DNA of 64,000 nucleotides from Nitrospirota bacterium (GTDB lineage: Bacteria > Nitrospirota > Thermodesulfovibrionia > Thermodesulfovibrionales > JdFR-86), in contig CAVRJY010000001.1 in assembly GCA_963721805.1 (NCBI GenBank), positions 992,001 to 1,056,000 on the forward strand, in the 5' to 3' direction. Below are positions 18,001 to 24,000 of the stretch, piece by piece. Numbering within the stretch: position 1 is the first letter of the stretch; every line of letters starts with the position of its first letter. A program made the position numbers.

Positions 18001-21000
18001 CAATAAGTTGTTCACCATGATGTGTGCCTATGGCTCTCCTGGTTTCAAGTGTAAACTCATGAAGTGCATGATATTTATCATTGCTCCATATCTCACCGAA
18101 CCCCACGCAACTCAATGAAGAAATGTCTTCCTTGCCTAGCTGTCGATTATTAGCATCTGAAATGCGTGGATTCCACGTAATATCTTTATGTGCTTTTTTC
18201 ATTTCATATGCATCAGGAAAAACTTCTCTGTAAATCAACAATTGAATTATCACATCCTTAATATATGGGCCTGTTTTTGCTGGTGTCGCGAGATAAATTA
18301 GATACCGCAAGACTATCGGCTTTATCTTTCTTGGGTTGGATATACCAAGAGTGAGGAAGTATTTTGCGAACCCTTCGATCTGCACCTTGTTATGAGTATA
18401 CCAATCTTCCTCTGAATACCTTTTGGCGATCTCAATGATAAATTCCATGTTTGCTTCATCGCAGACCGGGACATCAAATGACAGGTTGACAATCTTCCTT
18501 AAATACTCGCTTCCGCTTATAAGGTTTGTGCCATACCTTGCCTCAATTCCTTTCTCTAATACAAGCCTATCAACCCCGATAATGAAGATGCATCTATTGC
18601 CTTTTATTGAAATGAAATGCTTAATGTTCTCTATGAGCTTCACTACATTCTCAGGGAGGCACCTATCTAGGTCATCAATAAAAACAACAAGCGCTTTTTT
18701 CTTCCCTGCAATTTTTTCTACAACACTTGAAAAATCATGTTTTAGTTTTTCAATTTCACTTATCCATTTTTCATAATAATCAGACACATCTTTTTCGTAT
18801 TTGGTATAGTTTTCTTGAATATCTTTTAGATTCAACAGCCCAGCAGTTGAATGTTTCAGTAGGGCATCGCCACCTGCCAATAATACCCCTGTAGCAACCT
18901 TCCTCAATGAATCGAGGCTCTTATTTTGTTTCTTGCCAGTTGTTTTTGCCAGCCGGGATAAAAGAGGCAATAACAACGAAGCCTCATTTTCATATTCCCA
19001 TGCGTCAAACCAAAAAGTTTCAAATGATGCAGAGTTGTTCATTTGAGCTTGCAACATCTTCATGAAGGACGTTTTTCCGCTTCCCCACTCGCCATAGACA
19101 CCAAGTGTAAATGGTGGGGTAACTTGTTCTATAAGCGCGCAAAGCCGGATAACAGAATCCTTATGGTTCAAAAAATCATTCTTGAATGGATCGTCACTCG
19201 CAACTTCAACAGGGTTTTCAGGATCAAGCCGTAATTTCCACTTTGAGTCACTCATCAGTACACCTACTTTCTCGCCAAAGTATATTGCTGGTAGATATTT
19301 TAAGATAAAGTTCTCAGTTTGACAAGATGCCCGGATCCCATCCGTATACTAAGATGCTTCTTGCCCTCGTAAATCATTTTGGGGACTTGTTTCTGTTATC
19401 ACTAACTATAGTTAATCGAAAGTTAATAGAAAACGCACGGGGGACAATTTTCCCTATCAACTTCGGTTTATATATAAACCAAAGTTTGGCGGCCTTTGGT
19501 GTATAGTGAGTTAATGAGCATGATAGGATTATATTTGATGAGCGGGGCAGGCGGGGCAGGAGGGCTCCGCGCGTGTTCGGATAAATCGGCAAATACCTCG
19601 TTTTTTATCCGAACATCCGAACAAGGGGCGGAAAAACAAATGAGTATCTTCGCAGGGTTAGCCCCGGTTTTGACCCCAACATCCGAACGGAAAACGCAAA
19701 AACGCGCGCGCACGCGCGCGAAATGCATAACTATACGTATGACCGGCTCTCAAATCATGCCGTTGACCTTGGGGGGCGCGGGGGGCGGGGCCGACTGGCC
19801 CCCCTCCTTTTTCCCCACCCCCGAAAGCGCGAGAAATCGTCTTCAGACAAGGCAGGGCGAGAAGACCGCCCGATGGTGTACTTGGGCGTACATAGAGGGC
19901 GAGTCTTTGAAGCCCAACGCAGTATCAAGCGATTTGGCGCGCTTTCATACGTTAGCGCTGTTTGACAGTACCGCGTACGAATGGGAATAATGGAACATGC
20001 CACGCAGATATAATTCATTCGGTGCGAAGATGAAGTCCCTCTTCGGCGGCTCCGTCTTTAAGGTCAATATCGATGCCGGCTTCACCTGCCCGAATAGAGA
20101 CGGCACCAAAGGCTACACCGGCTGCATCTACTGCAACAACGACAGTTTCAGCCCCGGCGCTTGCTCGCCGAAGCTCTCGATCGCAGAGCAGGTGCAAAAC
20201 GGGATGGCCTATCTCGGACGGCGCTACGGGGCCACGAGGTTCATCGCGTACTTCCAGCCGTACACGAACACGTACGCGCCTGTGGACGAGCTTGAGCGGC
20301 TGTACCGCGAGGCGCTGGCGGTGCCCTCGGTCGTCGGCATCGCGATAGGCACGAGGCCGGACGCGGTCGACCCTGAGAAGCTCGAGATGATCGCGTCGCT
20401 GAAGCAAGAGGGCCGCTTCGTGCTCGTGGAATACGGGCTTCAGTCGGTCTATGAGAAATCACTTAGGTACATGAACCGGGGCCACGGGCTCGCGGAGTTT
20501 CAGGCAGCGGTGGACGCGACCGTGAGCCGGGGGATCGAGGCCGGGGCGCACCTGATAGTCGGGTTCCCGACCGAGACGCGGGCCGAGATGCTCGATATGG
20601 CAGAGGTGATATCGGCTACCGGGATCGGGTTTTTGAAGGTGCATCAGCTGCAGATAGTGCGCGGCACGCCGCTTGCGGACATATACGCCGAGAGCCCGTT
20701 TCAAGTTTTCGCGTACGAAGAATACGTTGAGTTCATCGCGGAGTTCCTCGAGAGGCTTGCGCCGGAGATCGTGATCCAGCGGCTGTTTGCTACAGCGCCG
20801 GATGATATACTGATAGCGCCGCTGTGGGGCCGCTCGCGCCACCAGATGCTCCGCGACATCGAGGCCAAGCTTGAGGCGCGCGAGACCCATCAGGGCAGGC
20901 TCTACAAGCCGCTTGGAAAAGTTACGGTAGGGGAGATATAATCAGCAATGGAGAAAGACGTAGAGAAGATCAGGCAGATCATCGACCGCGTGAAGGTGAA

Positions 21001-24000
21001 CTACACCAGGTTCGGGGGCGACGTCGAGTTGCTGCGCGTCGAGGGCGATGTCGTGAAGATCAGGCCCACCGGCTATTGCTATCGGTGACACTCCACTCGC
21101 ATTGGCCTGGTCGAGGCCATAGACGAAGCGGTGAAGGCGGAGTGCCCCTGGGTGAGGATGGTAGGGGTATCAACAGAGTAAGCTGCTAGTACGCGAGCAT
21201 CAGCGCGGCCGGGATGGATGTGATCGACGCCGGGCCGCGTCCGAGGTAGTCCCCGTCGATCTGCAGGCGTACGTCCGATTCGATCCCAACCTCGTGGCAC
21301 CTGATCTGGGTCAGCCCCTCCGCGCGCACGCGTGATCCGGTCACGAGCCCCCACGTCAGCCGGGCGATATCGCGGCGCGCCGGGCCGGTGATGAGCGTGG
21401 CGATGAACGAGGGTGAGGCGATGTCGGCCTCGGGCGCGAGCGTGAAGTCGCCGGCGTACTGGCGCGAGTTGCTGATGATCGCGGAGTAGCAGTCGCGGCG
21501 GACTCCGTCGAGGGTGATCGGCATCGGCTGCGGGTGCCAGAGGGCGAGGATGGCCGTCCCGCTGATGATATAGGCGGCCTTGCCGAGCGTTCGCTTGTAG
21601 CTGCCGCGCACGCCATGCACGACCTCGGCGTCATACCCCGCGCCCGCCATCAGGGCGAAGTACCGCGAGGCCCCCTGCAAGGTGATCCTGCCTAGCGCAA
21701 TCGGGCGGGGCGTCCGTGTGAGCGCGGCTTCGAGCGCTGAGGCGGTGTCCATCGGGAGCCCGGCCTCGTACGCGAGCACGTTTGCGGTGCCCATCGCGAC
21801 GATTCCGAGCGGCGTTGCGGAGCCTGCGAGCCCGTTGATGGCCTCGTTGATCGTGCCGTCCCCGCCGCAGGCGATCACGATGCGGCATCCGGCGTTCGCA
21901 GCCTCGCGGGCCATGCGCTCGGCGTCGCCCCGCCGGCCGGTGCTCAGGAGCGTGGCCCCGATGCGGGCCGCCGAGCTTTGGAGGGTGCGCATCCGTGAGG
22001 AGCCGGCCTCGGGATTCGCGATCAGCACTACGTTTGCTTGCATCCGCTTACTTTACATTACGTCAGGCGGCATTTCAACATTGAGCATGTTTGGTGCTAT
22101 AATATGCCTCCATTAATCCTGTGAAGAGAGGTGCCCTGAGATGAAGCGCTTTTTCGTGATTATGATCATATGCGCGGCGGTTTCATTCGGCTGTTCAGCA
22201 TGGGCAGCCGATGCACCCGCCCCTGTTGCCAATACCCCCGCCGCACCGGTCGCCAACGCGCCAGCGCCGAGTGCCATGGCCCCTGTGGCAGCTGCCGAGG
22301 CGAAGCCTATCACGCTTTCCGAGGCTATCGACACCGCGATCAGGAACCACCCCAGCATCGCCATTGGCGACGAGAACGTGCTCGTGGCCGAAAGCAAGAT
22401 CGGCCAGGCGCGCGCCGGATATCTGCCGCACGTGGACGCCACCGCCAGCTACACCCGCTACGGTTTTCCGGACAGTGTCTCAAGCACCTCCTCCGGGGGC
22501 AGCTCTATTTCGAACAGCCCCTCTATCTCAAACGGCGTATCGGGTAGCAGAAACCCGGCCTTCAACAGCTATTCGGCTGACGTCACGCTCACCCAGACGA
22601 TCTTTGATTTCGGCCGCAACTATATGAATATTCAGATACAGAAGCTCGGGGCCGAGTCGTCCAGGCAGAGCCTCGCGGACACGGTCTCTCAGATCGTGCT
22701 CGGCGTAAAGCAGGCCTATATCAATGCCGAGCTCGCGCAGCGGCAGGAGGCCGTGGCGCGTGACGTGGTAGCTCAGATGGAGCAGCACCTCGCACAGGCC
22801 AGCAAGTTTTTCGAGGTCGGCCTCAAGCCGCGCTTTGACGTAACCACGGCCGAGGCTAACCTGAGTTCCGCCAAACTCGATCTGATAAAGGCGGAAAACG
22901 CCACGAGCTTCGCGATGGTCACTTTAAACGTGAACATGGGCACTGCGGAAGATACGGTCTATAATCTCGAAGACGTCCTGAAATATGACGGGGCCGAGAC
23001 CAGGATCCAGGACTCGCTCGATCTGGCATACGCCAACAGGGCTGACCTGCGATCCCTCGAGCTGCAGTATGATGCCGCAAAGCGCGCCGTGACCGCGGTC
23101 AAGCTGGACTTCCTGCCTACCATCAACGGCAGCGCCACCTACAGGAATTACGGCGCCGACACGCCGCTTAAGAACCACGAATGGATCGCTGGCGTCACGG
23201 CTACGATGAACATCCTGAGCGGCGGGCTCACCTGGTATCAGATAGATCAGGCCAAGGCCACGCGCGACGCGCTGCGCGAGAACGTCAGGCTCGTAAAGCA
23301 GCAGATTTACCTGGCGGTGCAGCAGGCGTGGCTCGGGGTCATGAACGCTGCCAAGGGCGTCCCCGCGGCCGAGCTCTCGCTCAAGGCCTCCAAGGAGAAC
23401 CTCGACATCGCTGTCGGCCGCTATGATGCCGGAGTGGGAAGCCCGGTCGAGGTTACGGATGCGCAGATAAGCTACAAGGACGCCCAGCTGGCGCTGCTGC
23501 AGACCCTGGCCGACTACAAGAATTCTCAGGCGAGTCTCTCTCGCGCCGTCGGGGGGAAATAGTTGCGATCTATAATTGTCGCTTCAATAGCAGCCTTGTT
23601 TATGACGTTTGCGGTAGCGGGATGCAAGGGCAAGCAGGAGATGAAGCCGCCGGAGCGCGTCGTCGCGATAATGGCGGCAAACGCCGTCACCCGCGATATG
23701 CCGCAAGAGCTTGACGCCATCGGACAGGTCGAGGCCTCGGCCACGGTCTCGGTGCGCCCTCTCATCGGGGGACTGGTGCAGAAGGTCCATTTCAGGGAGG
23801 GCCAGGACGTCCGCAAGGGCGACATGCTCGTGACCATCGACCCGCGTCCCAACGAGATCGCGGTGCAGCAGGCAGAGGCCGCGCTCGCGCGCGATATCGC
23901 CCAGCGCGACAAGGCCGCGACGGACGACCTGAGATACAAGACGCTGCTTGCAAACGGCTTCGTCTCGCAGTCGGACTACGACCAGGCCCACGTTACGCTC

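Follow-up and report, generated by a model that had tools for sequence, protein, structure and literature searches.

Nfu-type proteins (PF01106) are carriers of Fe-S (iron-sulfur) clusters; in their dimers a [4Fe-4S] or [2Fe-2S] cluster is bridged by the CxxC motifs of two subunits. Selenocysteine (Sec) is also met in proteins of this kind of chemistry: in the HesB-like selenoprotein the Sec/Cys position of the motif has a ligand role, and in MvhD/VhuD and HdrA Sec possibly ligates a cluster. Selenoprotein inventories serve genome annotation as well as reasoning on why cells pay for selenium. In Table 1 of a 2026 inventory, which covers 119 families, the HesB-like selenoprotein (TIGR01911) is an experimentally verified entry and represents an A-type (IscA-like) Fe-S carrier family, and that table holds no row for NifU, Nfu or PF01106 (PMC13188914). 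The gene described here is supported by all tests run as a real Nfu-domain selenoprotein, with Sec predicted from sequence at the second position of the CxxC motif.

The gene and its reading frame

The window is the whole stretch of 64,000 nucleotides that was analysed, taken from a Nitrospirota genome (G000). The following features are needed for the description of the locus.

19997..20941, + strand: mnmL/ytqA, radical SAM tRNA modification enzyme (TIGR01212, Pfam Radical_SAM and Radical_SAM_C)
20930..20935, + strand: GGGGAG, Shine-Dalgarno-like, within the end of mnmL and 12 nt 5' of the ATG (by inspection only)
20948..21181, + strand: Nfu-like selenoprotein gene, 77 codons and a stop, encoding a single NifU C-terminal/Nfu domain of 77 residues
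21077..21079, + strand: TGC, Cys44, first residue of C-x-x-U (invariant in 33/33 sequences)
21086..21088, + strand: in-frame TGA, predicted Sec, residue 47 (translation, conservation, codon pattern)
21089..21091, + strand: CAC, His48, immediately after Sec (invariant)
21103..21119, + strand: SECIS-like hairpin within the coding region (MFE fold, covariation, frozen third codon positions)
21186..22043, - strand: YegS-like lipid kinase gene, convergent, outside the feature and bounding the mnmL-nfu unit (gene call, Pfam/NCBIfam scans)

The frame opens with ATG at 20948, passes TGA at 21086-21088 as codon 47 (window position 21086 is contig position 1013086) and closes with TAA at 21179-21181. 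When TGA is translated as U, the 77-residue product contains the motif ...PTGYCYR-U-HSTR..., and under table 11 the translation ends after 46 aa. Public gene calls split the gene in two or cut it short at the TGA, and the truncated pieces are named 'Fe-S cluster biogenesis protein NfuA'. Since the product is devoid of an N-terminal A-type or IscU-like domain, this name is a domain-level label only.

Conservation of the TGA codon

A search of 401 genomes from the phylum gave a best class of 34 matches with E values no higher than 2e-12 and 38-58% identity, a count that includes the gene of the window. Every one of them has exactly one TGA, in the same column, a conservation well above what chance would give. 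The matches below this level represent ordinary paralogs with Cys; among those listed only one carries a TGA, a copy in genome G158 that is broken after it. The 33 extracted sequences all show C-x-x-U-H-x-T-R in one column, Thr50 and Arg51 being invariant too, and have 14 invariant columns in total, 8 of which lie after the TGA. From metagenomes, 61 of 80 fetched loci proved to be family members with the same TGA column, the remaining 19 being chance pattern matches.

Coding constraint continues beyond the codon. Pairwise differences after the TGA amount to 0.315, 0.189 and 0.490 at codon positions 1, 2 and 3, and the synonymous share is 0.42 there, compared with 0.34 upstream of the TGA and with 0.11 and 0.07 in shifted frames. 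The true stop is itself TGA in 23 of the 33 family genes, so the codon is not reassigned. An earlier note on this DNA had claimed a 77-aa frame through UGA at C1:1013086-1013088, an in-frame TGA kept at one column in relatives, C-x-x-U-H in all loci and Cys in the more distant matches; sequence and translation agree on the frame, and the counts given above bear out the rest, with the motif extended by x-T-R and the broken G158 copy as the exception among the weaker listed matches.

The hairpin and the selenocysteine machinery

The MFE fold gives a stem of 6 bp (21103-21108 with 21114-21119) that begins 14 nt past the UGA and is closed by the loop GGUCG, the GGU of which begins 20 nt past the UGA; the family-wide loop form is GGUNN. 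Paired cells reach 84.8% against 76.5% in shuffles, and with 76 distinct rows 82.5% against 76.0%, none of 500 shuffles attaining the observed value in either case. Slid controls give 15-64% paired cells, and compensatory change is seen in 4 of 7 hairpin pairs. Third codon positions have an entropy of 0.00-0.60 bits inside the stem versus 1.2-1.9 bits outside, and codon columns 37-39 end in G in 76/76 rows despite the residue varying among E, R, Q and G. The hairpin is absent from the Cys paralogs. Taken by itself, the window's hairpin has a folding energy short of significance (z = -1.54; 15/200 shuffles fold equally well), no Rfam family matches it, and in the SelD gene of G000 a similar hairpin at that spacing is lacking. 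The hairpin with a GGU loop had been placed 15-17 nt after the UGA in the earlier note: its existence stands, with covariation added, and its placement has to be corrected to 14 nt for the stem and 20 nt for the GGU.

The window's genome was said to possess selA, selB, selD and tRNA-Sec, and all four were found, SelD itself being Sec-containing with its own in-frame TGA. SelA is present in 33 of 35 carrier genomes. In the other two, G111 (96% complete) and G127 (89%), no SelA or SelB match was obtained; the SelD gene of each contains an in-frame TGA, and tRNA-Sec is present in G111. Read-through of the TGA follows from the invariant residues after it, the codon-pattern substitutions and the covarying hairpin with frozen third positions. 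Comparative evidence, at the level of sequence, shows decoding of UGA-47 as Sec.

Domain identity and fold

The product matches Pfam PF01106 (NifU) with E 2.3e-12 over model positions 1-66 of 67, scoring 47.3 bits where the cut-off is 27; a reading of the genome that continues through the stop codon gave 39.4 bits for the same family. An NCBIfam scan at E 0.01 or better lists only TIGR02000, at 28.3 bits, the cut-off being 273.3. In a profile search of PDB sequences CxxU aligns onto the CxxC of 2z51, 1xhj and 2jnv. The AF2 model (pLDDT 89.1) has an alpha-beta-beta-alpha-beta order, and Foldseek ranks 1-5 are 2z51, 2m5o, 1veh, 1th5 and 2jnv, all NifU-like, with query-normalised TM-scores of 0.61-0.80. 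In the alignments and the predicted model, Cys44 and Sec47 are found at the N-terminus of helix 2, matching the cluster-holding CxxC of Nfu proteins; the first Cys of the pair is retained and the second is Sec, so that in chemical terms there is a pair but the motif is not CxxC. The NifU match at this E-value was reproduced, and so were the lack of an NCBIfam model (TIGR02000 being far below its cut-off), the alignment of CxxU with the CxxC of CnfU/NFU1, here onto that of solved Nfu domains, and a NifU-like predicted structure.

Other assignments were considered and rejected. NifU proper or E. coli-type NfuA is ruled out by the single domain of 77 residues and the low TIGR02000 score. A thioredoxin-fold CxxU/UxxC oxidoreductase does not occur among the 50 Foldseek rows shown, which NifU-like entries lead, and PF01106 is the only Pfam match. 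For the HesB-like selenoprotein, TIGR01911 gave no profile match in the NCBIfam scan at E 0.01 or better.

Distribution, paralogs and annotation

The Sec gene is an extra paralog: the same genomes also have an ordinary Nfu of the Cys type, which in G000 lies on contig C2. In the tree, a branch with SH-aLRT 99 separates the Sec rows from the others, on a stem of 1.14 changes per column. Among the 401 genomes of the phylum the Sec family is seen only in three families of that one phylum. It is common in wetland, sediment and freshwater metagenomes.

Cys at the Sec column occurs only in distant paralogs, which are canonical Nfu and share at most 45% identity. No close Cys form was found: scanning 185,579 species genomes for the motif gave 4 matches, all by chance, and among 1.84 billion representative proteins there was no full-length match ranking above canonical Nfu. 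The canonical motif G-A-C-x-x-C-P-x-S is changed to P-x-G-[FY]-C-[WY]-R-U-H-x-T-R in the Sec subfamily. The apparent lack of a close Cys form is unusual for selenoproteins and argues that selenium does something here that sulfur cannot.

The family had been described as missing from current lists. This is supported as far as the 119-family Table 1 goes (PMC13188914), which has no NifU/Nfu row, and for NCBIfam; in consequence the family is stored publicly as two meaningless fragments. The motif C-[WY]-R-U-H-x-T-R together with the hairpin offers a simple means of fixing annotations in the phylum and in metagenomes.

Genomic neighbours

Directly upstream of nfu, on the same strand, lies mnmL, and 6 nt separate its stop from the start of nfu. 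The mnmL product is MnmL/YtqA (TIGR01212, 310 bits against a cut-off of 180; Pfam Radical_SAM and Radical_SAM_C). According to a recent preprint MnmL is a [4Fe-4S] enzyme that acts on the (c)mnm5s2U wobble base of tRNA, converting cmnm5s2U to nm5s2U (bioRxiv 10.64898/2026.05.18.725915). A radical SAM gene had been reported upstream in 20 of 21 loci. For the window's order this stood, MnmL being directly upstream in 11/11 loci; as a general statement it failed, because MnmL is upstream in 11 of 30 genome loci and 13 of 61 metagenome loci, and in the larger carrier clade (family f25) proS takes that place. There are 153 sample genomes bearing MnmL without a Sec-Nfu gene, and 2 carriers without a MnmL match. 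The linkage is lineage-specific, confined to the window's order and not a property of the family, and MnmL is no dedicated partner of Sec-Nfu.

Proposed function and alternative explanations

The reading that we favour, with about as much confidence for as against, is a specialised Nfu-fold selenoprotein acting as an Fe-S cluster carrier with selenolate ligands and read through the UGA by SelB and the hairpin. SelB with Sec-tRNA(Sec) would be recruited by the small hairpin starting 14 nt past the UGA, and UGA-47 would thereby be read as selenocysteine and the whole domain made. Because Cys44 and Sec47 stand at the place of the cluster-holding CxxC, a carrier role is inferred as the most likely one. 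Two of the four cluster ligands would then be selenolates, and the invariant His48, Thr50 and Arg51 may tune or supplement ligation; Sec, being more nucleophilic and of lower pKa, could allow faster cluster uptake and release. In the window's order nfu is probably co-transcribed with the [4Fe-4S] radical SAM enzyme MnmL, which is a plausible, not an obligatory, client. A bolder form of this proposal, an obligate Sec carrier holding a [4Fe-4S] or [2Fe-2S] cluster on two Cys and two Sec (plus His48) across the dimer and loading or repairing oxygen-labile radical SAM enzymes such as MnmL, is considered improbable. If true, Fe-S enzyme maturation and decoding fidelity in the phylum would be linked to selenium nutrition, and mechanistic studies would gain a natural cluster donor with Se ligation. 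The protein is a small, easily expressed test object for the effect of a selenolate ligand on Fe-S cluster binding and transfer.

The main rival takes the same selenoprotein as a selenol/thiol oxidoreductase, in which C44-x-x-U47 cycles via a selenenylsulfide without holding a cluster, and its targets might be apo Fe-S enzymes, whose oxidised cluster-ligand cysteines it would reduce, or some other small substrate. Many predicted redox selenoproteins have CxxU as their motif, e.g. SelW-like, AhpD-like and GrdA (Table 1, PMC13188914). In the AF2 model CxxU sits at a helix N-terminus, the canonical C-P-x-S context is gone and an invariant His directly follows Sec; the lack of a close Cys form is what would be expected if Sec were catalytically needed. 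The altered motif together with that lack suggests obligate Sec use, which fits a catalytic redox residue at least equally to a passive ligand. Against such a role speak the Nfu fold, with NifU-like structures at the top 5 Foldseek ranks and no thioredoxin fold among the 50 rows shown, and the alignment of both residues with the cluster-ligating CxxC of solved Nfu domains; moreover, we know of no Nfu domain with demonstrated reductase activity. An oxidoreductase is possible but on the whole doubtful. Much less probable is a role in handling selenium or sulfur in place of Fe-S clusters, with U47/C44 bearing a perselenide or persulfide that would be passed on to SelD or used in the wobble-uridine chemistry of tRNA. 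Such a delivery role would explain the placement by the tRNA-related genes mnmL and proS, both conserved upstream neighbours acting on tRNA. In its favour counts the (c)mnm5s2U wobble base as target of MnmL (bioRxiv 10.64898/2026.05.18.725915). In other bacteria 2-selenouridine synthase modifies this same base. Yet the tRNA 2-selenouridine synthase TIGR03167 was not found in G000 (94% complete), and the nfu gene (C1:1012948) is far from selD (C1:1484881) and the tRNA-Sec gene (C1:1472357). To our knowledge, chalcogen relay by a Nfu domain has no precedent.

That the TGA does not encode Sec at all, being a true stop, so that the gene is a remnant of 46 residues or in fact two small genes, or being passed by another read-through route, can hardly be credited. 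Gene callers do place a stop exactly there, one copy, from G158, is broken past the TGA, the folding energy of the hairpin in a single sequence does not stand out and two carriers are without detectable SelA and SelB. However, the 27 codons after the TGA keep the in-frame codon pattern in 33 genomes and 61 metagenome contigs, which is incompatible with untranslated DNA; TGA serves as normal stop in most of the family genes, the hairpin is under RNA-level constraint and the Sec machinery is present.

Comparison with known systems

The closest systems are the Nfu-type carriers of PF01106, such as Arabidopsis CnfU (2z51), the C-terminal domain of human NFU1 (2m5o) and Staphylococcus epidermidis SE0630 (1xhj). 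The window's protein has the same fold and order of secondary structure, its active pair, at the beginning of helix 2, aligns with theirs, and like bacterial Nfu it is small and stand-alone. It differs in that the second Cys is replaced by selenocysteine and the surrounding motif is another one, in an F-P-W-V sequence close to the C-terminus whose Trp is invariant, and in forming a separate long-stemmed clade that exists alongside canonical Nfu and does not replace it. E. coli-type NfuA and NifU proper (TIGR02000) contain the same C-terminal Nfu domain, whereas Sec-Nfu comprises 77 residues in total, without their N-terminal A-type or IscU-like domain.

MvhD/VhuD (PF02662) and HdrA likewise have CxxU in Fe-S cluster-binding proteins (Table 1, PMC13188914), cluster binding in Sec-Nfu being predicted; however, they are hydrogenase and heterodisulfide reductase subunits, not carriers, and have no relation to it in sequence or fold. 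By analogy, the HesB-like selenoprotein comes closest as an earlier case of a cluster carrier that uses selenium. It and Sec-Nfu are small proteins of the Fe-S biogenesis or carrier type with Sec where Cys forms have Cys, yet fold and family are unrelated, with no TIGR01911 match and no HesB/IscA among the Foldseek rows shown. The HesB motif is UxGP (PMC13188914) and that of Sec-Nfu CxxUH, and HesB occurs in archaea and bacteria while Sec-Nfu is seen in three families of one phylum. Among Nfu-type proteins Sec-Nfu would be the first to contain Sec, and among types of Fe-S trafficking protein the second to use selenium, following the HesB-like one.

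The Sec-Nfu frame and its domain

The gene considered here (Sec-Nfu, with a NifU C-terminal/Nfu domain) ends after 46 residues when it is translated under table 11, and when it is read through its UGA it gives a protein of 77 residues containing ...PTGYCYR-U-HSTR..., in which the putative selenocysteine is residue 47 (Sec47). The elements of the locus are as follows, in window coordinates unless stated otherwise.

20948-21181, + strand: Sec-Nfu gene, 78-codon frame, ATG at 20948, TAA at 21179-21181
21086-21088 (contig 1013086-1013088), + strand: single in-frame TGA of the Sec-Nfu frame
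12 nt 5' of the Sec-Nfu ATG, + strand: GGGGAG, seen in the sequence
21103-21108 pairing with 21114-21119, + strand: SECIS-like hairpin with loop GGUCG, fold prediction
Stop 6 nt 5' of the Sec-Nfu start, + strand: mnmL/ytqA, radical SAM tRNA wobble-uridine enzyme, 314 residues (TIGR01212, 310 bits against a cut-off of 180)
End 5 nt past the Sec-Nfu stop, - strand, convergent: neighbouring gene for a YegS-like lipid kinase

The UGA was thus confirmed at the contig position named in an earlier note, and so was the match to Pfam NifU (PF01106; E 2.3e-12, 47.3 bits with a cut-off of 27), which covers model positions 1-66 of 67. The statement that NCBIfam has no model of this family also holds for release 20, where the only match is NifU proper at 28 bits, far under its cut-off of 273.

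The family profile sets C-x-x-U residue by residue on the CxxC of the solved Nfu domains 2z51, 1xhj and 2jnv, in line with what had been claimed before for CnfU/NFU1, and 1veh and 2m5o match it too. The confident NifU-like fold was likewise reproduced: AlphaFold2, supplied with the 33-sequence alignment, predicts an alpha-beta-beta-alpha-beta arrangement (pLDDT 89.1, pTM 0.78) with C44 and U47 at the N-terminus of helix 45-65, and the top five Foldseek matches in the PDB (2z51, 2m5o, 1veh, 1th5 and 2jnv) are all NifU-like.

Conservation of the TGA

The read-through protein was used as the query against 401 genomes of one phylum. Exactly one TGA was present in 34/34 matches at E <=2e-12 (38-58% identity to the window protein, its own locus counted; the copy of genome G346 ends at a contig end), which bears out the claim that the UGA and its place are kept in related genomes. 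Among the approximately 150 matches listed, those weaker than E 3.5e-11 are stop-free paralogs of the canonical Nfu type, whose motif is G-A-C-x-x-C-P-M-S and whose aligned codon is TGC or TGT, the sole exception being a copy in genome G158 (L056, contig G158:C122), which keeps the TGA and the motif. The frame of this copy is lost about 10 codons further on, and it is therefore a broken or decaying copy or an assembly error. Carriers belong to three families of the sample, namely f1 (4/6 genomes, that of the window included), f9 (8/14) and f25 (22/64 intact, in addition to the broken copy of G158), and no Sec-Nfu was found in the remaining 317 genomes. In a metagenome collection scanned with a degenerate DNA pattern that contains TGA, at least 120 stretches matched, and of the 80 analysed 61 are full family members with the same TGA column and conserved tails, the other 19 being chance matches.

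The reading frame is constrained past the TGA as well. In the 33 extracted genes C-[WY]-[RSQ]-U-H-x-T-R forms one ungapped column, and eight of the 14 invariant columns stand after the TGA (H48, T50, R51, L54, V55, W68, V69 and V74). Over the 27 codons past the TGA the mean pairwise difference is 0.315 at first, 0.189 at second and 0.490 at third codon positions, and the synonymous share of differing codon pairs is 42%, compared with 34% upstream and with 11% and 7% in the two shifted frames. Since the true stop is itself TGA in 23/33 Sec-Nfu genes, this codon is not reassigned in the carriers. A look-up of sequencing runs listed no RNA run, and just two DNA runs with small shares (0.14 and 0.05).

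A hairpin past the UGA

The stem of the predicted hairpin starts 14 nt past the UGA and can be formed in every member of the family. The earlier note had described a hairpin with a GGU loop 15-17 nt past the UGA; this agrees with the start of the stem, whereas the GGU itself begins 20 nt past the UGA. In 33 sequences 84.8% of the cells are paired against 76.5% in column shuffles, with 0/500 shuffles as high, a control in which the relatedness of the sequences remains in the statistic; once the alignment is extended by metagenome members to 76 distinct rows, the values are 82.5% and 76.0%, again with 0/500. Pairing falls to 15-64% when the 3' arm is slid by 1-3 columns, and four of the seven pairs show changes on both sides among the 33 sequences.

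Because the shuffle control keeps relatedness, evidence independent of it was sought, at third codon positions among other places. The covarying pair of columns 29 and 41 falls on second codon positions, so that residues shift jointly (Gly/Ala, Ala/Gly, Asp/Val, Ser/Ala). At third codon positions the entropy within the stem is 0.24, 0.24, 0.00 and 0.60 bits compared with 1.2-1.9 bits outside it, and codon columns 37-39 read GAG, CGG, AGG, CAG or GGG, with the final G in 76/76 rows despite a varying residue. The third positions of the stem are under an RNA-level constraint on top of the coding constraint. Such a hairpin was not found in the Cys Nfu paralogs. Some results speak against the hairpin or weaken the case for it. 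The energy of the window hairpin is unremarkable by itself (z -1.54; 15/200 shuffles fold equally well), and an Rfam scan of window 20900-21250 with E up to 10 gave no match. No similar hairpin was found in selD of the same genome (G000), a comparison which is uninformative.

Cysteine relatives and public annotation

In a tree of 33 Sec rows and 31 Cys-type Nfu sequences, built by a quick search on only 80 columns, the Sec rows take one side of a branch (SH-aLRT 99, stem 1.14 changes per column) and fall into two subclades matching two host lineages. A canonical Cys Nfu is also kept in carrier genomes, the copy of G000 being at C2:580845-581039 on another contig. A Cys form was sought in 185,579 species genomes with a motif allowing only Cys codons at the Sec position, to which TGA forms are invisible, and it gave four matches, all of them chance ones with no open frame around.

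When 1.84 billion representative proteins were searched with a profile, the top ranks went to 14 short proteins of 45-67 aa, of which 12 stop exactly before the Sec column and one a few residues sooner, and full-length matches start at E 2e-8 with canonical Nfu. The remaining short protein, P0002 (65 aa), was rejected as a Cys form, as it passes the Sec column in another frame and is a frameshifted call. The C-terminal part also occurs in the protein collection, as entries of its own with 31 and 38 residues. The truncated pieces are stored as 'Fe-S cluster biogenesis protein NfuA' or 'hypothetical protein', from which it follows that public annotation cuts the gene at the UGA. A 421-aa member of a truncated-Nfu cluster, P0155, looks by eye like an unrelated enzyme and is probably a clustering artefact.

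Selenocysteine machinery

As had been stated earlier, tRNA-Sec, SelA, SelB and SelD were all found in G000. Its selD (C1:1484881-1485801, locus L011) is a selenoprotein gene itself with one in-frame TGA, and the same is seen in genomes G111 and G127. SelA is present in 195/401 genomes of the phylum and in 33/35 Sec-Nfu carriers. Neither SelA nor SelB was matched in carriers G111 (96% complete) and G127 (89% complete); considering the TGA-bearing SelD of both and a tRNA-Sec above the Rfam threshold in G111, it is likely that the selAB contig is missing from these assemblies.

Gene neighbourhood

The radical SAM gene said to lie upstream is there in all 11 loci of the window's order (f1 and f9), where it is mnmL directly upstream, and in 0/19 loci of f25, where proS is upstream in 8/8 loci tested and a PilB/TfpB-like ATPase downstream in 3/4 tested. 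Between mnmL and Sec-Nfu, six f9 loci (L018-L023) have a frame of 172 codons in the opposite orientation. L019, the only copy scanned, has matches of the nitroreductase/BluB type that stay under the cut-offs. The 61 metagenome members have proS (38) or mnmL (13) upstream, or a flank that is too short (10). MnmL occurs in 186/401 genomes, that is in 33/35 carriers and in 153 genomes without Sec-Nfu; it stands elsewhere in the genome in five f25 carriers, and in carriers G191 and G221 there was no match at E <=1e-50. It can be said that the radical SAM linkage is real but lineage-specific, and with MnmL in 153 non-carriers and absent from two carrier searches, Sec-Nfu is not an obligatory partner of MnmL.

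In genome G308 the family search showed a single TAA within the frame of the mnmL beside Sec-Nfu (G308:C70:4385-5284). Just upstream of mnmL in the window a KAP-family P-loop NTPase gene (17945-19255, - strand) lies within a patch of 37-41% GC (17945-19500) in surroundings of about 57-66%, followed by approximately 700 nt without a recognisable gene; the patch looks like horizontally acquired DNA.

Other features of the window

A tmRNA gene (14948-15295, - strand; tag peptide ANDELALAA) is directly adjoined by smpB (15305-15754, - strand). A histidine kinase (12454-13492, + strand) appears to be divided between two frames that overlap (HisKA, 12454-13182; HATPase_c, 13157-13492), which suggests a frameshift or sequencing error, and the sigma-54 activator frame at 13946-14728 begins at the AAA+ domain without a receiver domain. 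OEP and HlyD-type genes (22141-24735) precede a frame for an RND pump of the AcrB type (709 residues; 24732-26861, + strand), which covers only positions 2-602 of a 1021-position Pfam model and is therefore truncated or interrupted. At 27833-29947 (- strand) one 704-residue frame joins PDZ, radical-SAM-like and DUF512 parts with a complete shikimate dehydrogenase.

Proposed function and rival explanations

The comparative evidence shows that the UGA is decoded, with the hairpin serving as SECIS, to give the full Nfu domain with Sec47; that this TGA is not selenocysteine at all is considered very improbable. In Nfu dimers the CxxC pair holds a shared Fe-S cluster. Judging from fold and alignment, Cys44 and Sec47 would replace this pair. 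In the reading preferred here, Sec-Nfu would be a specialised carrier with selenolates as two of its cluster ligands, assisted by His48, Thr50 and Arg51, and radical SAM enzymes of the MnmL type are plausible clients. We give this reading roughly an even chance. The main rival, rather unlikely in our estimation, takes Sec-Nfu for a selenol/thiol redox protein acting through C-x-x-U, in favour of which speak the loss of the canonical Nfu motif context and the lack of a close Cys form. A chalcogen relay appears improbable, as its best support is gone: no tRNA 2-selenouridine synthase (TIGR03167) was found in G000, and a selenouridine link of Sec-Nfu was set aside for this reason. A 2026 preprint (10.64898/2026.05.18.725915) describes YhcC/MnmL as a [4Fe-4S] radical SAM enzyme converting cmnm5s2U to nm5s2U, and the passages on it make no mention of Nfu or selenium.

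Comparison with known systems

The family had been said to be missing from current lists. This proved right for Table 1 of a 2026 review (PMC13188914), which has 119 selenoprotein families and subfamilies and no NifU, Nfu or PF01106 row, and the names NifU and Nfu occur neither in the main text of deep-Sep (PMC12013277) nor in that of BSepDB (PMC13326102). Titles and abstracts of full-text matches likewise hold no description of a NifU/Nfu selenoprotein, or of one in the literature on the selenoproteome of the phylum. Sec-Nfu represents both a new family of selenoproteins and a novel form of the Nfu domain, made by a decoding mechanism that is fully known. In comparison to ordinary Nfu it has P-x-G-[FY]-C-[WY]-R-U-H-x-T-R in place of G-A-C-x-x-C-P-x-S, and F-P-W-V in place of [IL]-P-E-[IV]. 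In its spacing and G-containing loop the hairpin presumably resembles the fdhF element of E. coli.
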